From the IMG/VR virus record IMGVR_UViG_2529292922_000012, positions 1-12,765 of that record: a stretch of DNA of 12,765 nucleotides; one strand, given 5' to 3'. The DNA is from a virus. Taxonomy: Duplodnaviria; Heunggongvirae; Uroviricota; Caudoviricetes. Under the pieces are notes generated by a model, which was given only the letters and a program-made list of their open reading frames with translations, had not been told where the DNA came from and did no database searches. Made by a program: the position numbers and the translations under genes. The stretch's first letter is position 1, and every line of letters starts with the position of its first letter. Below, in pieces: positions 1 to 12,765 of this stretch.

Positions 1-274
1 GTCCCATTGACCGAATATTAAGATAATGACTTCCTGTTAACCACCCCTGTATGCTTAAGATGACCCTTCCCGCATCCACACCTCGCCCATCATCCCAACC
101 ACGGATAAACTCACCGCGTAAATCCGGTAATTTATTGGTGGGGTAGGCCTTTGCCAGTTTGGGATACATTTCAGAAGAAAATGCTGCACCATTGCATTTT
201 AGCCAGCCCGTTGGTGGTGTTTCTAAGGGCCACGGAACGGGCACACCAACAGGCAGTGCAGAGCCTTCCCCTAA
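1..274 (-). CDS. Tail-fibre C-terminal cassette, 5' part only (continues past the left window edge); no start codon of its own
   Basis: Minus-strand frame open from ~274 to position 1. Translation begins ...LGEGSALPVGVPVPWP...DDGRGVDAGR like the two downstream cassettes, then diverges. Antisense of track ORF 159..362. Confidence 0.6.
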
Positions 275-329
275 ACCAACGTTTTCATGCCGCCCTTACG
301 ATATAATTAAACGCAATGTTACGAGGACG
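69..329. repeat. Direct repeat copy A (~260 bp) spanning a cassette boundary
   Basis: Near-identical to 508..768 at a constant 439-bp offset, with scattered substitutions. Confidence 0.9.
266..291. other. Candidate invertase crossover site (cix/mix/hix-like), copy 1
   Basis: TTCCCCTAAACCAACGTTTTCATGCC. Shares the AAACC-AA-(C/G)GTTT core with recalled hixL (TTCTTGAAAACCAAGGTTTTTGATAA). Sits at the 5' end of a cassette. Confidence 0.5.
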
Positions 330-713
330 AATGGTTACATAATTAACCCCATCACCTCGTGAAGGCCCTGCAAATGAAAAACGGGAAAATCCTGGTTGGT
401 TAGAAACAATTTGGTCATAGTTATTGATTGAATGACCAGACCCAATGTCGAAATTACCTCCGTAATGAGAAAAACTTGTACCATCCTGCCCTGAAAGCAG
501 GGTACGTCCCGCATCAATCCCGCGCCCATCATCCCAGCCACGGATAAATTCACCGCGTAAATCCGGTAATTTATTGGTGGGGTAGGCTTTTGCCAGTTTG
601 GGATACATTTCAGAAGAAAATGCTGCACCATTGCATTTTAGCCAGCCCGTTGGTGGTGTTTCTAAGGGCCACGGAACGGGCACACCAACAGGCAGTGCAG
701 AGCCTTCCCCCAA
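285..713 (-). CDS. Tail-fibre C-terminal variable cassette (collar-like conserved N-part, variable tip, conserved ...RPRNIAFNYIVRAA end)
   Basis: Track ORF, 142 aa. N-terminal ~65 aa near-identical to cassette 724..1185. The 'M' is a TTG inside the crossover-like site; the frame stays open a few codons upstream, so it is probably a 3' gene segment fused to a constant 5' part after inversion. Confidence 0.75.
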   Translation of the reverse strand: MGEGSALPVGVPVPWPLETPPTGWLKCNGAAFSSEMYPKLAKAYPTNKLPDLRGEFIRGWDDGRGIDAGRTLLSGQDGTSFSHYGGNFDIGSGHSINNYDQIVSNQPGFSRFSFAGPSRGDGVNYVTIRPRNIAFNYIVRAA

Positions 714-768
714 ACCAACGTTTTTATGCCGCCCTTACGATATAATTAAAGGCAATATTACGAGGACG
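508..768. repeat. Direct repeat copy B (~260 bp)
   Basis: Aligns with 69..329 and, more divergently, with 982..1197. Confidence 0.9.
705..730. other. Candidate invertase crossover site, copy 2
   Basis: TTCCCCCAAACCAACGTTTTTATGCC. Imperfect dyad around a central AA, same orientation as copy 1. Confidence 0.55.
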
Positions 769-1185
769 GTTTTCATTAGCTGTTGGCACGACACGAGAGG
801 CGTCGAATCCAAGGTCATCGGTTTTGCCTATATCAGTTGTGTTATTCGGCATTCTCGCAGATCGTGTTCCTGCATCATAAAAAGCCCCTCTGATTGCATC
901 AAAAGACATGCCAATCCCGCCATCTGCGAACCCCTCAATATTTCTTATTGCATCCCCCTGTGAAGATAATAATTGTCGCCCGGCATCCACACCACGTCCG
1001 TCATCCCAGCCACGAATAAATTCACCGCGTAAATCCGGCAATTTATTAGTAGGGTAAGCCTTTGCCAGATTTGGGTACTTTTCAGAAGAAAATGCTGCTC
1101 CGTTACATTTCAGCCACCCCGTTGGCGGAGTGGCTGAGGGCCACGGAACAGGTACGCCAACGGGCAGTGCTGAGCCTTCCCCCAA
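724..1185 (-). CDS. Tail-fibre C-terminal variable cassette, proximal to the invertase gene
   Basis: Track ORF, 153 aa. Same conserved N-part (GEGSALPVGVPVPWP..TPPTGWLKCNGAAFSSE..AKAYPTNKLPDLRGEFIRGWDDGRG) and same C-terminal NIAFNYIVRAA as 285..713, with a different middle. Begins at TTG inside the crossover-like site. Confidence 0.75.
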   Translation of the reverse strand: MGEGSALPVGVPVPWPSATPPTGWLKCNGAAFSSEKYPNLAKAYPTNKLPDLRGEFIRGWDDGRGVDAGRQLLSSQGDAIRNIEGFADGGIGMSFDAIRGAFYDAGTRSARMPNNTTDIGKTDDLGFDASRVVPTANENRPRNIAFNYIVRAA

Positions 1186-1197
1186 ACCAACGTTTTA
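982..1197. repeat. Direct repeat copy C (~215 bp, more diverged; homology stops at the crossover-like site)
   Basis: Aligns with copies A and B from 'catcccagccacg' to 'caaaccaacgtttt', then diverges toward the invertase gene. Confidence 0.85.
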
Positions 1198-1203
1198 GTC
1201 TTA
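1178..1203. other. Candidate invertase crossover site, copy 3 (right boundary of the invertible region, ~55 bp upstream of the invertase start)
   Basis: TTCCCCCAAACCAACGTTTTAGTCTT. Repeat homology ends exactly here. Arrangement mirrors gixR-gin and cixR-cin. Confidence 0.55.
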
Positions 1204-1256
1204 ATCCCTACCTATACCAACGATGTATTTTTAACTAAACAAAGAGGTTGTTTTTC

Positions 1257-1829
1257 ATGCAAATTGGCTACATTCGTGTGTCAACAAATGACCAAAACAC
1301 AGATTTACAAAGAAATGCACTGAACTGCGCAGGATGTGAACTGATTTTTGAAGATAAAATAAGCGGAACAAAGTCAGCCAGACCAGGCTTGAAAAAGCTG
1401 CTCAGAACGTTATCAGAAGGAGATACGCTGGTTGTCTGGAAGCTGGATAGGCTTGGCAGAAGTATGAAACACCTTATCACGCTTATAGAGGAGTTGCGGG
1501 AAAAAGGTGTTAATTTCCGTAGTCTGACAGACAGTATTGACACATCAACACCCATGGGGCGTTTCTTTTTTCATGTCATGGGTGCTTTAGCAGAAATGGA
1601 ACGTGAATTAATTGTTGAGAGAACACTGGCCGGACTGGCAGCTGCACGCGAACAGGGACGCATTGGCGGACGTCGCCCGAAGTTGACAAAAGAACAACAT
1701 GAGCAAATAGCGAGGTTGATCGAAAATGGCTACAGCAGGAAACAGTTGGCAATTATTTACGATATCGGTGTATCGACGATTTATCGTTATCATCCTGTAG
1801 AGAAGCGCCAAACTCAATCTGAGCTGTAA
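1257..1829 (+). CDS. cin: Serine recombinase, Hin/Gin/Cin/Pin/Min-family DNA invertase
   Basis: MQIGYIRVSTNDQNTDLQ...VVWKLDRLGRSMKHL...SLTDSIDTSTPMGRFFFHVMGALAEMERELIVERT...GRIGGRRPKL plus C-terminal HTH: canonical invertase motifs with catalytic Ser in IGYIRVST. The track starts at an upstream TTG (1248); I chose the internal ATG, which gives the family-typical N-terminus. Symbol reflects P1-like context. Confidence 0.9.
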   Translation: MQIGYIRVSTNDQNTDLQRNALNCAGCELIFEDKISGTKSARPGLKKLLRTLSEGDTLVVWKLDRLGRSMKHLITLIEELREKGVNFRSLTDSIDTSTPMGRFFFHVMGALAEMERELIVERTLAGLAAAREQGRIGGRRPKLTKEQHEQIARLIENGYSRKQLAIIYDIGVSTIYRYHPVEKRQTQSEL

Positions 1830-1951
1830 TTCTAATGCCGCGTCGGTGTAATTTATCTTGATAGAATAGGTACATTTATCGCGCGGCACATCAATTCGAT
1901 GTATCTAGCGCCTGCTGACCGCTAATGAAAACTGTTCTCGAAATGTTGTCC

Positions 1952-1970
1952 CTAGTCCGAGACTAGGGTA
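1952..1970. repeat. Perfect 8-bp inverted repeat CCCTAGTC-cga-GACTAGGG in the intergenic region
   Basis: Seen directly. No U-tract on either side, so more likely a protein-binding dyad or RNA structure than an intrinsic terminator. Confidence 0.4.
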
Positions 1971-2264
1971 TCACCTCTGGAAAGCATACGCAGAACCTTT
2001 TTTAACCCAGGGTGCCCAGCTTTTTTGCTGCTCGCCTTATTCGCAAAAATTAGCTCACATCCTGCGCTTTCAAGTGCTTTTCACTGCATAGCTGTGTTTT
2101 GTTCATTTGTCTATATGCGTACATAGCCTATTAGCATATTTTCTGCCCACTATCGTTATTTATTGCAAGCTACAGGTTTTAATTAACAAAACCAGTGTGT
2201 GTGGAAATCACAAAGTGCATACCGTTCTCAAATGTTGTTCAACTTACTGTTGTATAGGTAAAAA

Positions 2265-2528
2265 ATGACATTTTATGTACATATCGTGATGTTATCCCTT
2301 CTTGGTGGGGTGTATTCGTATTTGAGTGGGCTATGTGAAAACCGTTACGAGTCTTCATGCAAGAAATTGCTGGCCGAATGTATTTCCGCCGTACTTGCTG
2401 GCTTTATTGGCATGTATCTCGCGGAATATAAGGACATGAATGAAAGCCTTCAGAGCTGCATGGTTCTTATTTTCAGCGCCAATAGCAGGCTTATTATTGA
2501 AGGTTCCAAAAGTCGGTTGAATAGGTAA
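2265..2528 (+). CDS. Hypothetical small protein with two hydrophobic segments
   Basis: Track ORF, 87 aa. Weak SD (AGGT ~9 nt upstream). Hydrophobic stretches IVMLSLLGGVYSYLSGL and ISAVLAGFIGMYLA. No recognised family. Confidence 0.3.
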   Translation: MTFYVHIVMLSLLGGVYSYLSGLCENRYESSCKKLLAECISAVLAGFIGMYLAEYKDMNESLQSCMVLIFSANSRLIIEGSKSRLNR

Positions 2529-2602
2529 GTCTCTTATGCAACATAACCGGTTGAGAAGTTACTTTGCATACCATTACCTCCTGACAACGTAGGAGGGAAC
2601 TT

Positions 2603-2932
2603 GTGCTTGACACACAGGAATTAGCTCCAGTTGCTATTGCGCTCCTGCTTTCAGTAATTGGTGGGATAGGCACGTTCCTGATGGATGTCCGAGACGGTCG
2701 CCAGTCTGGCAATTTGTTGGGATTGGTTACGGAGATCTTTGTTGCAGTGACAGCTGGCGCGGTGGCGTACCTATTGGGGCAACACGAGGGCTGGGAGTTA
2801 TCAATTACGTACTTAATGGTAACGATAGCCAGCAATAACGGTCATGAGGTGATTTCAGGGATGAAACGAGTGAATATCGATAGCATTCTGAATGTTCTTA
2901 CAAGTTTGGTGAAAAAGGGAGGCGGGAAATGA
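2603..2932 (+). CDS. lydA: Holin-like small membrane protein; LydA-like first gene of the lysis/dar operon
   Basis: Strong SD AGGAGGG 6 nt before GTG start. 109 aa with 2-3 predicted TM segments and a charged C-terminus (KKGGGK), which is holin architecture. Position after cin matches my recollection of P1. Confidence 0.55.
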   Translation: MLDTQELAPVAIALLLSVIGGIGTFLMDVRDGRQSGNLLGLVTEIFVAVTAGAVAYLLGQHEGWELSITYLMVTIASNNGHEVISGMKRVNIDSILNVLTSLVKKGGGK

Positions 2933-3372
2933 TTGGCTGGGGTGTATGCGTTCTTGCGTTAGCCTTAGCCGATCGCTATTTGCTAAAACGCAAGGACATC
3001 ACGCATTTAGAACTTGGTGATGTGGAAATTAAACCGGGTTTCATCCGGGTGCCGTTCAAATACCGGTCTAAATTCCCGTTTTTGCGCGGCGCAACGGTCA
3101 GATATTGGATCCGCGATGTTCAGAAGCCGACGACAGTGATTGAAGGCGAACAACGTTGTTTGACGTCGGCTGAACAGGGCGAAAACAGTGAATGGTTGTA
3201 CATACCCACTGAATATATGGGTAAAGGAGAGCGACTGTGGCATTTCAACGTCATGGTTACGCATGGCGACTCGTTCATTAACCCGTTGTATCGGATTTTC
3301 CCTGTTACTCAGCAAATCCGCAGAAGTTACGTAATAAATCTCGCACAGGATGTGTCAGATGACGAAAAATAA
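2929..3372 (+). CDS. lydB: LydB-like protein (putative holin antagonist) with N-terminal hydrophobic segment
   Basis: ATGA overlap with the preceding stop. SD GGGAGG. 147 aa. Named by synteny only. Confidence 0.45.
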   Translation: MIGWGVCVLALALADRYLLKRKDITHLELGDVEIKPGFIRVPFKYRSKFPFLRGATVRYWIRDVQKPTTVIEGEQRCLTSAEQGENSEWLYIPTEYMGKGERLWHFNVMVTHGDSFINPLYRIFPVTQQIRRSYVINLAQDVSDDEK

Positions 3373-3961
3373 GTATGCAACGGTCGATTTTGACCAGGTT
3401 AATGAAAAGGGGCTGAAATCCCTTATCGCGGCGATCAATAAAACCGGTGTTACGGTAATTGAGGTTGACTCCAGCAACCGCGCAACAACGAAAGATGGCG
3501 TTAAAGTTAAAACCGCAAAGCTGGTTCTTAACGACGGACAAATTCTTGCCATACAGGTAAACGATACTGGCGATATATCGTCTGTGAGGCTGAATGGAAA
3601 AGCTATTCCTAACGCTCAGTCGCCGGATATCAAGACGCTTGGTACCGTCATGGGGCAAGCGGCCCGCAAAAACTCCGCAAAATTCCAGAAATCACTGATC
3701 GCCAAAGCGAAACGTGTTGCCAATCCGGTAGACAAGAAACCGGCAGTAAAATCCAACTTTCAGCGCCTGCAAGAGGCAAAACAGCGGAATGCTCAGGTGG
3801 TTGCCGCTTATAAATCAGCGCAGAACTCGGTGTCTTTCAATCAACAGCAGATCACTGATTTGCGGGCGAAGCTGGATAAGGAGACAGGCCGACTCAATAA
3901 CGAAAAGGCCCGAAATGGCGAACTCAAACGCCGTCTTAAGCAACTGAAAGCAGGAAATTAA
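3359..3961 (+). CDS. hdf: Hdf-like protein (homologue of a DarA fragment), coiled-coil C-terminus
   Basis: Shares a segment with the next protein (..ARKNSAKFQKSLIAKAK.. versus ..AEKNSAKFQRAQKKKKA..), also visible at DNA level. Start ambiguous: 3350 or 3359; overlaps the lydB 3' end. Confidence 0.6.
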   Translation: MTKNKYATVDFDQVNEKGLKSLIAAINKTGVTVIEVDSSNRATTKDGVKVKTAKLVLNDGQILAIQVNDTGDISSVRLNGKAIPNAQSPDIKTLGTVMGQAARKNSAKFQKSLIAKAKRVANPVDKKPAVKSNFQRLQEAKQRNAQVVAAYKSAQNSVSFNQQQITDLRAKLDKETGRLNNEKARNGELKRRLKQLKAGN

Positions 3962-3962
3962 C

Positions 3963-5882
3963 ATGGAACAGTTCAATATCAATAAAGGGGTGACGATCAA
4001 GCCTGGGCTTGACGTGCTTCCCCCGCCAGTGACTGATGATGAATATCGCGCATTAATGGCCGGTGAGGACCGCTATCTGATGACGGAATCCAACACCCTG
4101 GAGGAAATCGAGGCTACGTTCTTCTATGACACGCCGATCCACTGGTGTGCTACGGATTTACTGGAGGCGATTAGTTCTACTCGTTTGCAGTTACACCGGA
4201 CCATGCAGGCATTTGTCCGGGCATTGAACCAGAAGCTGAATGGTACCGGAATCTCTGCGGGGAGTGATAAAACGGGGGATGTGGCCCAGAGCGGCGCGCG
4301 CGCGATCGGCGGTGCTGAAATTGGCCGGGCACGTAACGTTAACGGGCTGCCGGTCCTGCCAGCCATTATTCCGCTCAGTGATGGTCAGACTATCAGCATT
4401 CTGTTTCATAGCCCGACAGCGGAAAACCGGATCACCAATAGCGATACGCTGGTTGCTTTCCAGTTCTTACTGAATAAAAAAGACGTTACTCACACCGTTG
4501 CTCCGATGAGTGGACGTGATATGACGCTGGCGCAGGTCACCATGAAACTTGCCAACCTTGCAGAGAAAAACTCGGCAAAATTTCAGCGTGCGCAGAAGAA
4601 GAAAAAAGCCCTTGTTGATGAAATAACCCAACTACAGGCTGACAGTGACCAGAAAGAGGATGCCATGAGCGACCTCGTGGATCAGGTGGCAGCGGTAGAA
4701 GGGCAGAAGGTAGATCTGGAGCAGAAAATTAACGCTGTTGCATCGGAAGCGGATTCTCTTTATGAAGAGAATGAGCGTTTGCAGACGGAGATTGATCAGC
4801 TCAATCGCACTGGTGGGCGCGATACCATTGCTCCTGCGGGGATGACTGGTGGACACTCTCGCGCGATGACGGATCGCCTTGCCAGTATCAAAAATCGTAT
4901 GCATATGAACGGGGAAGTGACGCTCAGTAATGGTGCATCAATGAAGCAATTCATTGAGGACGGCGAAGGGTATATCCAGTTAACCGATTCGGATGGCAGC
5001 GTGTACATGATCAAGGCTAAATCCATACAGGGTGTGGACATGGCAGATGCGATCGGCAAGCTGTTTAAAGCCTATAAAGCGGGTAATGTATCGGAATACC
5101 TGGTCCAACCAGAAGAACATAAACCGGAAAACGTCGAACCTGAACCAGCGGAGGATACCGGTAGCTCTTCGCCTGAACCAGAAGTCTCTGTAGGTGCATA
5201 TCGATATGCCCTGCAAATGCGTCCGGCGGCCCCTGGCGCAATACCTGAAGGTAACAAAGCAATTCTGCCGCGCCCTGATGAAGGTGACCCGTATTATGAA
5301 TATGCACGCTACGGCATTGCTACTTACGATACCCCGCTTTCTGATCAGCAAATGAGTGAGTACGACCTGAAGTTATTGCCTCGCGAGGATTCTTTCGACT
5401 TCCTGGCGAAGACACTTACTAATGGTCCGTTTGGCAAATATGCACAAAAAGCTCTGGAGCTGGCCACCAGCTCACCAGACGAGTTCCGCGTAATGCTGAA
5501 AACTCAGTTTCAAAAAACTTTCCCCAATATTGCGTTTCCGGGGGGCGCTGGCACCGAGAAAATGGTGCAGAGCATGATCAATGCATTGCAGGCCGAAGTC
5601 GGTGAGATTACTCAGCCAGAACCTGCCCCGGCACAGCCTGATGAAACGGTTAGCGAAGCAGATGCAGAGGCTAATAAAGCCATTGAATATCTCAATAACG
5701 TGATGGATATGCAAAGCACTGACATGGCGGAGATCCGTAACGCCCGGGGTAATGTCCGGGAAGCGATTGCAGCCCTTCAGGCTGCCGGGCGTTTTGAGGA
5801 AAACGAAGAGCTGGTTAATGGCGCTGCTCGCCACTTGGCTGATCTGCTGGTAGCAATCCAGAAAGCGGGGGTAGCGGCATGA
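3963..5882 (+). CDS. darA: DarA-like anti-restriction / head-internal protein
   Basis: 639 aa. ATG 2 nt after the hdf stop, with SD AGGAA. Central coiled coil, Pro/Glu-rich linker. Named from size, position and paralogy with hdf. Confidence 0.6.
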   Translation: MEQFNINKGVTIKPGLDVLPPPVTDDEYRALMAGEDRYLMTESNTLEEIEATFFYDTPIHWCATDLLEAISSTRLQLHRTMQAFVRALNQKLNGTGISAGSDKTGDVAQSGARAIGGAEIGRARNVNGLPVLPAIIPLSDGQTISILFHSPTAENRITNSDTLVAFQFLLNKKDVTHTVAPMSGRDMTLAQVTMKLANLAEKNSAKFQRAQKKKKALVDEITQLQADSDQKEDAMSDLVDQVAAVEGQKVDLEQKINAVASEADSLYEENERLQTEIDQLNRTGGRDTIAPAGMTGGHSRAMTDRLASIKNRMHMNGEVTLSNGASMKQFIEDGEGYIQLTDSDGSVYMIKAKSIQGVDMADAIGKLFKAYKAGNVSEYLVQPEEHKPENVEPEPAEDTGSSSPEPEVSVGAYRYALQMRPAAPGAIPEGNKAILPRPDEGDPYYEYARYGIATYDTPLSDQQMSEYDLKLLPREDSFDFLAKTLTNGPFGKYAQKALELATSSPDEFRVMLKTQFQKTFPNIAFPGGAGTEKMVQSMINALQAEVGEITQPEPAPAQPDETVSEADAEANKAIEYLNNVMDMQSTDMAEIRNARGNVREAIAALQAAGRFEENEELVNGAARHLADLLVAIQKAGVAA

Positions 5883-6244
5883 CACTATCAGCTATTGAGT
5901 TAATGGATCTCAGCGATAAGTTGGATGCTTTGATGTCCAAAGCGGCTACCGCGAGTGGCATGGAGTTGCTGGATATCAGCGATGAAATTGACCAGATCAT
6001 GCAACAGATGGGGTACGGTGTGTCCGGCGGCAGTAGTGGCGAGGAAAAACAACCTTCGGTACATGATGGTGTGCCAAAACTGGTTGCTGATTTCCTGGCT
6101 GATAAATTCGTCGATCAGAGCACCGATGCATTTATCGGTACCTTGCAGGATTTGAGTCAATATGTTGGCACATACATCGACCTGGACCAGGTTAAACAGC
6201 ACACGGCGGCATGGATAGCCGCCAACATTAAAGAGGCAGCATAA
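5879..6244 (+). CDS. ddrA: DdrA-like small acidic protein
   Basis: ATGA overlap with the darA stop. 121 aa. Named by synteny. Confidence 0.5.
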   Translation: MTLSAIELMDLSDKLDALMSKAATASGMELLDISDEIDQIMQQMGYGVSGGSSGEEKQPSVHDGVPKLVADFLADKFVDQSTDAFIGTLQDLSQYVGTYIDLDQVKQHTAAWIAANIKEAA

Positions 6245-6256
6245 GGCGTAACAGGG

Positions 6257-9244
6257 ATGAGCTTAAGCGATCAGGTGGTAATGGCCACCAGCATAGAAAC
6301 GCTGATCGAGCTGCTAAAGAACCTGCCCGATTATGGGCGGGTTTCGTATGTGGTGACAGCGAAGGGAGACGAGGTAAAAACAGCGTTTGATATCGTCGAT
6401 GCCTCAGCTCTTTTGGTATCCAATACTCTGGATGGGAAAATTAATCCTGACTATCCCCAGGAACTTCAGCCGCGCGACCGGACCCGCGCATCCAGCCTTC
6501 TTCAGGTTAACCAGATATCCAAAGATTTGCGGCCTGCTCAGCTTACTGATTCCGGTTTATCCAGCCATGGTGCGCCGATAATTGGTGAGGACAATGCCGT
6601 TGAGTCTGGTAATGGACGGACCATGGGGATCATCAAAGCCTATCAGGACGGCAATGCGGATCGGTATCGTGAGTACCTGATTGATCATGCGACCGAATTC
6701 GGCATACGACCTGAAAAGGTTGAATCAATGACGGCTCCGGTACTGGTGCGCCGCCGGTTAACCAAGGTTGACCGCGTTCAGTTTGCCAAGGACTCAAATA
6801 TTTCTGATCTTCAGGAAATGGCAGCCAGTGAAAAGGCTTTTGTTGATGCCGACAGCATAACACCGGCGATGATGGCGCTTTTTAACCCGTCAGAAAGCGG
6901 AGATCTGCTTAGCCGCAGTAATGACGCGTTTATTCGCGGATTTATGACGCAAGTTGGTGCCACACAGGCGGCTGGCCTTGTAACGGAAGATGGGCGACCA
7001 ACGCGGCAACTTGTTGACCGTATACAAAACGCGATCTTTGCCAAGGCATATAAGGATGCGCGCCTGGTAAGGATGGTTGCAGAAGAACCTGATCCGGATA
7101 TGCGTAATGTTCTGACGGCGCTTAATGCGGCAGCCAATGATTTTGTCCAGATGCAGGCTTTATCAGGAGAAGCGCACAAGCAGGCTGTGACAACTATTGT
7201 TGATGGCATTGAGACAGCGGATAGCCTCGATAAAAAGGCGCTGGCGGCATTGAAAGATGCGGTAGACCTGGTAAGGCAATCGAAGGAGTCAGGCCAGCAT
7301 ATTACCGATGTTATTGCTCAGGGGGATATGTTCAGCGAAACGGCCCCGGAAGTGAAAGCACTCGCGTTGTTCATCGTCGCGAATAACCGTAGCGCGAAGC
7401 GTATGGCCACCGCCTTTAAGTTGATGGCTCAACGTATCAATGATGAGTTACAGCACCAGGGCCAGGCGCTGGGGGATATGTTTGGCGGTGGTGATGTGTC
7501 GTTACAGGATATCCTTCGCCAGGTGTCTCAGGAACTGGAAAACGAAGGCATGCAAGGGATATCCGGCGGTCTTTTCGAGTCCGTTTCCGGCGGTAGTTAC
7601 AATGGTGTTGCTCCATATACCAGTTTGCTATTACATCGGGCATCCGGCATCAAAGACATTATTCATCTGATCAGGCTGCTTTCCCGTACAGATCCCCAGG
7701 ATGAACAGCTTGTACAAGTGCTTGCGCATTTTGTTCGAATGCCTGTTGCCGACGTGAAAAAATGGTGCCGATTATTCGGTATCAGCAATTCGTTACTTCG
7801 CGGCTTGTTAAATCACGCATCCTCCCTTGGGCGCGATGGCTTTGACGAGATAGCGCAGGCGATAAAAAACGGAGATATGCCACCAGCTATTGACTGGTTT
7901 TCCATTCGCCCAACCAGGGTGAAAGCATTCCTTAGCGCGGCGCATTCGGCATCACCATTGGCAGAAATGGTTCAGAGGTTGTCGCTCATATTCACAGACC
8001 ATACCGCGTTGGGTGATCTGACTCTGGACGAGATGAAAGAAGCCTCCATTCAGTGGGCCGATCAACAAAATGAGGTTAACTCTGACTTCTTGCCAGCATT
8101 CAGGAAGGCCGTTAGTAAAGCGGATGATGCCCGTGGAATTCTGAGGGCATTTAAGGCATTGCAAAGTCAGGTTAATAAACATGTCGGTGATATCGATGGG
8201 GTAACGGCGGAAGGCAGGGATATCCTTAAAGAGCACGGCATAACGCCAGAGTTTATTGATGAGATCAGGACTGATATGCAGCGTGAGGTCGTATCGTCCC
8301 TGCAAATCGTAGCCAGAGCGTTGGCGGATGCTAATCCGAAGAGTGCGGCCATTGTTAACCGTGTTATTGGTGATATTGAAGCATCGGAGGGCATGGGGGC
8401 GCTGAAACTCTTCCTTTCGCGAGCGTTTAATCCTAACGGCAATATTCTCCCCGGCATTATTGGTGAGGCTAAAAAGTATGTCAGCGAAGAAGAACTTGAG
8501 CAGCTTGACCAACTACTTAAGCGATTCTCATATAACCCGCAGACACGCTGGCAAATGAATCAGCGAAGTATGGGTTCGGTCCACGAGAAAGTGTTATCTG
8601 CCATGAACAGTGCGATCGCAAACTCATCCGTATCTGAAGAAAAAGCTCTTGAGTGGGCCGACTCTTTTATCACGGAAGAAGTGGAAGAAGCCCGCGCTGG
8701 ACAGAATGGTGGGATAGACCTGCGCAAGGAACTTGCTGATATTTATCGCCTGACCGGCGGGAAAATATCGACATTATCAAAGGTAGTTCACCACCAGGGA
8801 AGGGCATATGCAAATCTTAATGGTGTTGTTGCTGTCAATTTGAACGATGAAAATGCAAGTGCACTGTGGCACGAGCTGGGTCATCATCTTGAGTACAGTA
8901 ACCCTGGTTTGTTAGAGAAAGCCCGGTCATTCCTGAAGGCCAATGTTGAAGGGGATAAGCCATCTTTCGTCAATATCGGTGGGCGTGGCAAGCCTGAATG
9001 GTGCTTCAGATCTCGATTGAGTAATATTTATATGGCGAAGGTATACCCGCCAGCCTCAGTAAGTAACACCGGGAAAATTCGGCAGAAATCACCGACTATT
9101 TCCAAAACGTCAGCAACGGAAGTATTCTCTATGGCTCTTCAGTTGTATCATGACAAAGAGGCCGCTGCCGCATCACTGATGAATGGTGACGGATTGCTGG
9201 AACTGTTATTAGGTGTGGCAAAGGAGCTAAATAATGCAGATTAA
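6257..9244 (+). CDS. ddrB: DdrB-like large protein: ParB/Srx-like N-terminal signature plus C-terminal HExxH (zincin-like) motif
   Basis: 995 aa. ELQPRDR...GAPIIGEDNAVESGNGRTMGI resembles ParB boxes (QPR / GxxR). HELGHH at aa 872-877 (nt 8870-8887). Long helical middle. Confidence 0.6.
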   Translation: MSLSDQVVMATSIETLIELLKNLPDYGRVSYVVTAKGDEVKTAFDIVDASALLVSNTLDGKINPDYPQELQPRDRTRASSLLQVNQISKDLRPAQLTDSGLSSHGAPIIGEDNAVESGNGRTMGIIKAYQDGNADRYREYLIDHATEFGIRPEKVESMTAPVLVRRRLTKVDRVQFAKDSNISDLQEMAASEKAFVDADSITPAMMALFNPSESGDLLSRSNDAFIRGFMTQVGATQAAGLVTEDGRPTRQLVDRIQNAIFAKAYKDARLVRMVAEEPDPDMRNVLTALNAAANDFVQMQALSGEAHKQAVTTIVDGIETADSLDKKALAALKDAVDLVRQSKESGQHITDVIAQGDMFSETAPEVKALALFIVANNRSAKRMATAFKLMAQRINDELQHQGQALGDMFGGGDVSLQDILRQVSQELENEGMQGISGGLFESVSGGSYNGVAPYTSLLLHRASGIKDIIHLIRLLSRTDPQDEQLVQVLAHFVRMPVADVKKWCRLFGISNSLLRGLLNHASSLGRDGFDEIAQAIKNGDMPPAIDWFSIRPTRVKAFLSAAHSASPLAEMVQRLSLIFTDHTALGDLTLDEMKEASIQWADQQNEVNSDFLPAFRKAVSKADDARGILRAFKALQSQVNKHVGDIDGVTAEGRDILKEHGITPEFIDEIRTDMQREVVSSLQIVARALADANPKSAAIVNRVIGDIEASEGMGALKLFLSRAFNPNGNILPGIIGEAKKYVSEEELEQLDQLLKRFSYNPQTRWQMNQRSMGSVHEKVLSAMNSAIANSSVSEEKALEWADSFITEEVEEARAGQNGGIDLRKELADIYRLTGGKISTLSKVVHHQGRAYANLNGVVAVNLNDENASALWHELGHHLEYSNPGLLEKARSFLKANVEGDKPSFVNIGGRGKPEWCFRSRLSNIYMAKVYPPASVSNTGKIRQKSPTISKTSATEVFSMALQLYHDKEAAAASLMNGDGLLELLLGVAKELNNAD

Positions 9245-9545
9245 AATCGCAGCGCCATTAGGCGGAGATGCCATTATCGAATTTGATGATAATGAAGAAG
9301 TTTCCGGGCGTTTAAGCATTATCTCCGGTGACATTACCGAGGACATGATCGCTGAAGCCATAGCTGGGGCAAATCCCAATAGCTATATGGGATTCGTTAA
9401 CACCCTTGATGCTCCCGCAAGTGATGTTCTCCGAACGCTGCATCTTTACGCTGGCTGGTTTGTTGATTGGCCAGCAGTAGATGGTGGCGATGAGGACGAC
9501 GACGACGATGATTTTGGTGATCATGTAGACCAGATCGTATATTGA
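9234..9545 (+). CDS. Small protein with highly acidic C-terminus, translationally coupled to ddrB
   Basis: ATG overlaps the ddrB 3' end. SD AAGGAG 7 nt upstream. 103 aa ending DGGDEDDDDDDFGDHVDQIVY. Last gene before the terminator. Confidence 0.55.
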   Translation: MQIKIAAPLGGDAIIEFDDNEEVSGRLSIISGDITEDMIAEAIAGANPNSYMGFVNTLDAPASDVLRTLHLYAGWFVDWPAVDGGDEDDDDDDFGDHVDQIVY

Positions 9546-9574
9546 AGAAATCCCGCCAATTGGCGGGATTTTTA
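9546..9574. terminator. Bidirectional rho-independent terminator between convergent genes
   Basis: AAATCCCGCC-aatt-GGCGGGATTT 10-bp GC-rich stem followed by a T-run on the + strand and ATTTCTTC on the - strand. Lies exactly between the stops at 9545 and 9577. Confidence 0.7.
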
Positions 9575-9576
9575 CC

Positions 9577-10663
9577 TCACGAGAAACTCTTTTCTGATGT
9601 CAGCCAACAGTGCTCGTGCATATCTCTTGGTGGTTTTTCGACAAATGCCTCTTCAGCCACATCCTGCCAGGGGATTTGTTTAGCCCATTCAGTTATAGCG
9701 TTATGGTTTGCCGAGAATAACGGTATTGTATAGGCCTTCAGCCAGTCTAATGTGCTGGAGTTGTGTTTTTGAGCGTGATGTTTCGCATGGTGTTTGGCGA
9801 TCACGATCGTAGGCACTACCCATTTACTACCGTCAGTCATTGTGAAGTGCATATTACGGGGAACAGATGACTTTTCCATCAACTCCCGAATCCCGGGGAA
9901 TTTCCCCAAGATCAATCGGCGATATTCATCGCTATTGCGTCCACCAAACTCTTTGGCTTTGAATTCAAGATATGCTTCAGAAACGAGAGGTGAATCCTCT
10001 GTGTTTAGAGTTATCGCCGTGAAAAAACCAGCAGGATTGTTTTTACTATGGGCCAACCGGTGATGCGAATCATAAAAGTACCCTTTCTCGCGTTCCGATG
10101 GTTTCGACAGCAACAGCAGGCGCGAGTCATAATTGGTTAAATTGCCAGTTATCACTGCATGAGCGCGATCGCTGATTTCCGCCGAGTTAATAACGATGAA
10201 AAGATCGTGCGGTCCAGTAAAACCAGCCAGAGACTCTTCGTTATTCAGACAATAGGTTATATAGACGCATCCCCATGTTTCACTGATATGCACCAACCCT
10301 TTGTCAGGGTGTATTCTGAAATAATTGCCAAGAAAAGGGTGTTTTTGGGTAACTCGCTCCCAATAACGGAACATATAGTCAATTATTGTTTTTCGACTAT
10401 CGTTAATCGCAGGAGAAACAACCACTGTACGGGAACACGAATACAGTATTGTTTGCAGGATGCTAATCACTGCCACAATAGAGGTTTCCCCAATACCATG
10501 TGGTGTGGTGGCAGTGACTTTGGCTCCGGTGTTCTTTATCGCGTTAATAATTTTTGCTTGATGAGGTGTTAACTCAATATCAAGCAACTCTTTTGCTGCC
10601 AGTTCCCAATTGTCTTTATACCGTTCTATCAGTGCTAACCAGGCAGATTCATTCTGTATACGA

Positions 10664-10671
<8 letters not shown>
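9577..10671 (-). CDS. Terminase-large-subunit-like P-loop ATPase-domain protein with degenerate Walker A/B; no nuclease domain apparent
   Basis: Track ORF, 364 aa, GTG start with SD GAGGTGG. Motif order PHQ...TTPHGIGETS...DLFIVINSAE...LLLLSKPSE resembles the adenine-Q / Walker A / Walker B / C-motif layout of terminase ATPases as I recall it. His-rich patch AKHHAKHHAQKH. Confidence 0.5.
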
Positions 10672-12764
<2,093 letters not shown>

Positions 12765-12765
12765 G

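Follow-up and report, generated by a model that had tools for sequence, protein, structure and literature searches.

The stretch of DNA analysed here, a window of 12,765 nucleotides (nt) covering positions 1 to 12,765 of the virus record IMGVR_UViG_2529292922_000012 from IMG/VR (Caudoviricetes), is a segment of a P1-like (Punavirus) phage-plasmid, as judged from its list of open reading frames (ORFs), from Pfam and PHROG matches and from the annotation of P1, with which it shares 98% nucleotide identity across positions 3000-9543. The subject of this text is hxr, the small gene that closes its darA operon, and the protein Hxr it encodes, which is tentatively best explained as a co-produced partner of DdrB, specifically of the C-terminal HExxH (zincin-like) domain of that protein, within the Dar system. 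This explanation is backed by a layout of overlap, Shine-Dalgarno sequence and terminator that eight lineages share, at identities as low as 29% and with differing genes downstream, by homology to P1 that ends in the hxr stop codon, by a mosaic ddrB in Klebsiella aerogenes, by a relic copy of the operon end, by analogous gene pairs in Vibrio phages and a structural match to a member of one such pair (from phage VAP7), by the intactness of hxr in 80 of 80 loci with a ratio of non-synonymous to synonymous polymorphism (pN/pS) of about 0.31 in the core, and by a dispensability for plaque formation that hxr shares with all dar genes. The support for pairing Hxr with DdrB is strong, though entirely comparative and not experimental.

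The ORF itself is already catalogued, a fact the initial annotation had not recognised: it is the known P1 gene hxr, and its product is 98% identical to P1 Hxr (YP_006490.1; P1_gp021) and 100% identical to the proteins of SJ46 and RCS47. From P1 Hxr it differs by N55D, A81V and one additional Asp in an acidic run. Residues 1-103 align to positions 1-105 of the profile of PHROG 2292 (expectation value E 3.2e-60), a family of unknown function. In the window as in P1 the gene follows ddrB; downstream the two differ, P1 having isaB and IS1 where the window has an ORF of 364 amino acids (aa) without P1 counterpart and an IS21-family element, and the nucleotide match to P1 ends at window position 9543, within the hxr stop codon and two bases before the end of that codon. 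The protein has a mass of 11.1 kDa and contains 18 Asp, 6 Glu, 1 Lys and 2 Arg, which gives a net charge of -21 and a calculated isoelectric point of about 4. That hxr is a real gene under selection can be stated plainly. It is intact in all of the 80 P1-like loci from IMG/VR (101-107 aa), and in these a crude pN/pS for codons 1-82 is 0.31, as compared with 0.17 for the part of ddrB encoding the C-terminus; the loci are a population sample, the scan having yielded near-identical P1-like loci only, with DdrB C-termini 98-100% identical to that of the window.

The genomic context of hxr was compared across the window, P1 and seven further, divergent lineages; with the window included, the lineages number eight in all (29-100% identity). 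Every one of them has the gene order ddrA, ddrB, hxr, with hdf and darA upstream as well where the locus extends so far. It had initially been proposed that the small gene is translationally coupled to the 995-aa gene preceding it, and this is borne out for what is now recognised as ddrB: the two coding sequences overlap by 11 nt, and the sequence AAGGAG, provided by Lys-Glu codons near the DdrB C-terminus, lies 7 nt upstream of the hxr ATG. In the seven other lineages AAGGAG or AAGGAA is found at equal spacing from the start codon, formed there too by the conserved Lys-Glu codons of ddrB, and the overlap amounts to 11 nt in L003, L004, L006, L009, L011 and L013 and to 14 nt in L008. A sigma-70-like promoter was not found on the plus strand from position 9000 to the hxr ATG. 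Behind the gene lies a GC-rich hairpin (Table 1), which escaped a simple scan for terminators; as the 364-aa ORF converging on hxr also ends directly before it, the hairpin probably terminates transcription in both directions. Each of the eight lineages has such a GC-rich hairpin no more than a few bases from the hxr stop, with a T run behind it in most, and the hairpin sequences are mutually unrelated. Hence hxr is the last cistron after hdf, darA, ddrA and ddrB, has no promoter-like site of its own and is followed by a terminator. The gene beyond differs by lineage (toxin-antitoxin pairs, Arc, CHAP, ssb and others); order, overlap and hairpin stay constant while this next gene varies, which on comparison of the sequences marks hxr as the fixed last cistron of the operon, adjoining a cargo hot spot. 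A programmed frameshift joining DdrB to Hxr was considered and can be ruled out, as the hxr frame carries a TAA two codons before the ATG.

Exhaustive and profile searches for homologues returned full-length relatives of 95-105 aa with identities down to 29%. The named matches and long contigs among them belong to elements of about 80-96 kb of Enterobacterales (Escherichia, Salmonella, Klebsiella, Citrobacter, Cronobacter, Enterobacter and Rosenbergiella). An Hxr homologue is present on 498 plasmids in PLSDB, 469 of them non-mobilizable, and hxr occurs in 479 of 5426 complete E. coli genomes (about 9%), where 471 of the 482 copies are plasmid-borne, nearly always on P1-like plasmids; the 20 phage records carrying the gene are all of Punavirus type and have one copy each. 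In the alignment of the family G53, V65, L66, R67, W75, W79 and P80 are invariant. A metagenomic protein of 184 aa (P0015) contains the Hxr domain in tandem, the first copy with a short acidic linker and the second with the full poly-Asp tail, a duplication hinting that Hxr may act as a dimer. In phage vB_EcoM-813R1 (locus L002, 1953-6245) a transposase of the IS200/IS605 family (IS609) is inserted between ddrA and ddrB, and ddrB is annotated as two coding sequences (3283-5559 and 5556-6245); hxr is still intact there.

DdrB consists of a ParB-like N-terminal domain and an HExxH metallopeptidase-like C-terminal domain (PMC5512222), and according to older work as cited in the same paper it is cut to about 76 kDa before packaging. 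Two loci connect Hxr with the C-terminal part of this protein. In a locus from Klebsiella aerogenes (L008, 1646-5297) the identity to the window is 77% for DdrA and 88% for the DdrB N-terminus, and falls to 58% in the middle of DdrB, 44% at its C-terminus and 42% in Hxr; as the DdrB C-terminus and Hxr are equally diverged, the recombination joint must lie inside ddrB. The sole homologue without an upstream ddrB call (P0010; L096, 1940-2326) is 63% identical to Hxr and its ATG is now TTG, and yet the last 25 or so codons of ddrB remain upstream of it, behind stop codons. This decayed relic of a dar operon adjoins a DinI gene and insertion sequence (IS) remnants.

A domain resembling the DdrB C-terminus also forms the end of other proteins, encoded by Vibrio phages of the Ackermannviridae; its match to the DdrB domain is reciprocal by tblastn (E 1e-9 to 1e-10), and the two have the motifs RAY, WHExGH and TEVxSMGLQ in common. 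Querying more widely with this part of DdrB retrieved nothing beyond fragments from close relatives. The Vibrio proteins carrying the domain (L105, 606-4504; L106, 1857-4330; L107-L111) have 632-1207 aa and an N-terminus unlike that of DdrB, which in most matches PHROG 3867. In seven of seven Vibrio loci an ORF of 87-130 aa comes directly after the domain, as hxr does after the homologous HExxH domain of DdrB; it overlaps the upstream gene by 4 or 11 nt or starts 1-2 nt past its stop codon, and its Shine-Dalgarno sequence likewise lies within the last codons of that gene. When the Hxr model was searched against BFVD, the small protein of VAP7 (QDB73363.1) ranked 44th, with TM-scores of 0.39 and 0.42 and a non-significant E of 2.6. 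Its annotation as tetraspanin-15 is surely wrong. The small Vibrio ORFs are taken here as positional analogues and possibly remote homologues of Hxr. Together with the eight lineages and the relic copy they lend comparative support to the initial suggestion that the two products act together.

The AlphaFold2 model of Hxr, built from 22 diverse homologues, has a mean predicted local distance difference test score (pLDDT) of 76 and divides the protein into an alpha/beta core and a tail predicted to be disordered (Table 1). Predicted strands span residues 2-6, 12-16 and 28-32, followed by helices at 36-44 and 62-71 and a strand at 76-78. Fold searches with the core gave no significant match to solved structures or viral (BFVD) models, known DNA mimics included, so that no helix-turn-helix protein, known DNA mimic or other solved structure matches the core. 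A phmmer match at residues 23-49 (window 9300-9380) to FG-GAP/VCBS repeat proteins (P0021, P0026 and P0027; summed E down to 8e-8) runs through a GDxTxDxxAExxxGAxP-like pattern and was rejected; it is probably compositional, because such a match is not found in Pfam and because the model has a strand and then a helix at this place.

The initial annotation had described a 103-aa product ending in DGGDEDDDDDD. The ORF and the run exist, the latter at residues 83-93 with eight consecutive Asp/Glu at 86-93, and the run is followed by the ten residues FGDHVDQIVY, so that the acidic stretch forms a tail whose tip is hydrophobic and is not the literal C-terminus. The last 21 residues include 11 acidic ones and no Lys or Arg. 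Shuffling Hxr's own, already acidic, composition yields an acidic run of at least eight residues in 56 of 200,000 cases. Among the 80 near-identical loci the Asp/Glu run has 6-10 residues, always in frame and with 22 distinct DNA variants of the tail, and most of the variation in hxr falls there. Across the family the tail is kept: it has 20-25 residues, lacks Lys and Arg and has a net charge of -7 to -14 in 22 of 22 members, and in most of them its last residue is Asn or Tyr, preceded by hydrophobic ones. The absence of a conserved acidic tail from homologues, initially named as a refutation, is therefore not what is seen. The tail is conserved in character, not in sequence; polyanionic and predicted to be disordered, it may be DNA-like. 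Core and tail are both acidic (-10 and -11 in the window protein); in the 22 members the core charge ranges from -3 to -10 and that of the whole protein from -11 to -22.

How Hxr might serve DdrB can be outlined as follows. Ribosomes ending ddrB would load onto hxr, so that Hxr would arise next to the C-terminus of nascent DdrB, in amounts proportional to DdrB. The conserved core of about 80 residues may then dock on the C-terminal domain of DdrB, and the disordered tail, devoid of basic residues, could form a polyanionic shield or decoy. Such a shield would bar DdrB, or else Hdf with its very basic character (net charge +21), from contact with DNA or from acting too early as a peptidase, up to the point at which the Dar proteins are loaded into the procapsid. 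Such a logic resembles that of a dedicated effector chaperone or an immunity-type partner and is unlike that of a repressor. Class I chaperones of type III secretion and the immunity genes of polymorphic toxins are, like Hxr, small, acidic and encoded by genes overlapping that of their cargo, with which they are apparently not exported; neither effector chaperones nor immunity proteins match Hxr in fold, and the likeness is one of logic. The tail itself is reminiscent of the acidic tails of the single-stranded DNA-binding protein (SSB) of E. coli and of gp2.5 of T7, which are also disordered and rich in Asp and have a hydrophobic end. These tails dock on partner proteins and compete with DNA. 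Hxr differs from both proteins in having no match to the OB-fold, and its relatives end in IVN or IVY instead of IPF or DF.

Several observations weigh against a partnership with DdrB. No DdrB-Hxr fusion protein is found among the matches of the homologue search, and the joint inheritance of Hxr and the DdrB C-terminus can be explained by adjacency alone. The VAP7 structural match lies below significance, and between Hxr and the small Vibrio proteins homology is detected neither by hhalign (probability about 1% or less) nor by hmmsearch (3.7 bits). The Vibrio proteins, moreover, have net charges of -6 to +6 and no acidic tail; the tail can therefore not be the core of any function they share with Hxr and, if the two are related at all, would be an addition of the Punavirus branch. 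Finally, knocking down hxr by CRISPR interference left plating unchanged, as was the case for other dar genes (PMC10695390), and the lack of a plaquing defect argues against an essential neutralising role. Apart from this one functional datum, the literature consulted on Hxr consists of annotation, and hxr is not in the supplement of the knock-out collection in PMC9024508.

The Dar anti-restriction system is given as six proteins in recent work (PMC9024508, PMC12810830), and it might be asked whether Hxr is a seventh that travels with the other Dar proteins in the virion, as a packaged internal head protein co-injected with the DNA, whose polyanionic tail would act at entry. All five of the operon products cited for this idea as lying upstream are virion proteins. 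The P1 virion proteome lists Hdf, DarA, DdrA, DdrB, DarB and Ulx and does not list Hxr (PMC9024508); this is weak evidence, because the list applies a two-peptide threshold and trypsin is expected to release a single Hxr peptide of suitable length beside two of 36 and 41 residues, so that the protein would be missed. Hxr is, on the other hand, not mentioned in the cryo-electron microscopy study of DarA and Hdf either, and no feature that would target it to the capsid was identified. We consider packaging unlikely; the absence from the virion list fits a partner that is not packaged.

That hxr is an unrelated accessory gene, simply carried along at the end of the operon and functioning independently of Dar, has in its favour the cargo hot spot directly behind the gene, as well as a G+C content at third codon positions of 0.41, compared with 0.50-0.53 for the dar genes. 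Cargo varies; the presence and position of hxr never do, the gene being confined to Punavirus-type elements at one copy each, and its ribosome-binding site is embedded in conserved codons of ddrB. An accessory role is thus improbable.

The initial annotation had raised the possibility of a DNA mimic, and a free-standing protein of this kind, titrating within infected cells an enzyme of the host that acts on DNA, for instance RecBCD or a type I restriction enzyme, would suit the net charge of -21 within 103 aa (24 acidic against 3 basic residues, in core and tail alike), the tail kept across the family and the location within an anti-restriction operon. The structural model does not bear it out. 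The acidic cluster is predicted to be disordered and not a rigid phosphate-like array, about half of the charge residing in a tail with pLDDT of about 50 or below, and the core lacks a fold match to any known mimic; more broadly, Hxr matches no solved protein in either sequence or fold and has no match in Pfam. Ocr (gp0.3 of T7) and ArdA share with Hxr a small size, a very acidic nature, their encoding by mobile elements and a tie to defence against type I restriction, and differ from it in sequence and fold and in that the charge of Hxr is concentrated in the predicted disordered tail. Ocr and ArdA are made early on entry. P1 expresses its darA operon late, and a late product left out of the virion would be unable to protect incoming DNA; mimicry would also leave the strict coupling to ddrB unexplained. 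Taken together, these points make a free-standing mimic quite improbable. Only a slim chance is given to a variant that joins the two ideas, in which Hxr would be a seventh Dar component anchored by its core to the C-terminal domain of DdrB, with the tail of variable length serving as a disordered decoy, mimicking DNA or the SSB tail, against a type I restriction enzyme, RecBCD or an SSB-dependent factor. Should this be true, the HExxH domain with its small coupled protein, being ancient and common to the Vibrio Ackermannviridae, would represent a general delivery unit of injected polyvalent proteins.

The label under which Hxr is found in the P1 record, "possible repressor; homolog of Xre", goes back to 28% identity over about 58 residues; it has been copied into many derived records, while others say hypothetical protein. 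Hxr matches no Pfam family at E up to 10 and no NCBIfam family at E up to 1, helix-turn-helix profiles included, and a sequence search of the PDB gave no match. Repressors of the Xre/HTH_3 type have their small size in common with Hxr and nothing else, as Hxr is predicted to be alpha/beta and not all-helical, is extremely acidic, with three basic residues and a charge that does not suit DNA binding, and is encoded in a late operon; homology to them is rejected and the annotation is contradicted. An Xre-type transcriptional repressor, for which the P1 note alone speaks, is almost certainly not what Hxr is.

New in the present analysis are the contradiction of the repressor label, the invariance of hxr in the darA operon, the variation of tail length among close relatives, and the finding that in a distant phage family, too, an HExxH domain has a small coupled ORF behind it. 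P1 is a reference phage, and hxr is, by this analysis, a seventh gene, invariably found in the darA operon. Putting its label right is of importance for annotation; the function of hxr could explain the processing and loading of DdrB and could show whether injected polyvalent proteins require dedicated small partners.

Table 1. Features of the window, with emphasis on hxr and the darA operon
Feature	Position	Strand	Basis or remarks
Tail-fibre tip ORFs, then cin	cin 1248-1829		ORF list, Pfam/PHROG, P1 annotation
lydA and lydB	between cin and hdf		ORF list, Pfam/PHROG, P1 annotation
hdf	3350-3961	+	PHROG for Hdf, P1 annotation
darA	3963-5882	+	Pfam DarA_N and DarA_C, P1 annotation
ddrA	5879-6244	+	PHROG for DdrA, P1 annotation
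ddrB (995 aa; N-terminal DdrB-ParB domain, C-terminal HExxH domain)	6257-9244	+	Pfam PF18763 (E 2e-39); PHROG 2299; P1 annotation; PMC5512222
DdrB C-terminal zincin-like domain	8552-9241	+	HELGH at 8870-8884 (residues 872-876); alignment-based
Shine-Dalgarno AAGGAG of hxr	9221-9226	+	Lys-Glu codons near the DdrB C-terminus
Overlap of hxr start and ddrB end	9234-9244	+	ddrB stop TAA at 9242-9244
hxr coding sequence	9234-9545	+	ATG start, 103 codons, TGA stop; PHROG 2292, full-length; last cistron of darA operon
Hxr alpha/beta core, residues 1-82	9234-9479	+	AlphaFold2; blocks with pLDDT 82-90, except residues 21-30 at 68
Hxr acidic tail, residues 83-103, predicted disordered, ends in IVY	9480-9542	+	pLDDT 52, 45 and 40 for the last three blocks
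DEDDDDDD run, residues 86-93	9489-9512	+	GAT/GAG/GAC codons
GC-rich hairpin, 3' arm ending in T run	9546-9573		Starts 1 nt after hxr stop; fold energy -19.8 kcal/mol, z-score -5.1
364-aa ORF, convergent with hxr	9577-10671	-	PHROG 5902; weak terminase-large-subunit-like match
IS21-family element	start near 10811; istA 10897-11919, istB 11916-12698

Beyond the operon, a scan of the whole window against Rfam gave no match. A pair of paralogous ORFs of 142 and 153 aa (285-1185, minus strand), which have the N-terminus MGEGSALPVGVPVPWP in common and adjoin cin, presumably represents the alternative tail-fibre tips of the invertible segment. Within ddrB, antisense to it, lies an ORF of 132 aa (6811-7209, minus strand) which corresponds to P1 iddB, annotated as of unknown function, and is a candidate gene. 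An isaA-like gene has been cut by the IS21-family element, leaving a remnant of 58 aa at 10664-10840 on the minus strand.

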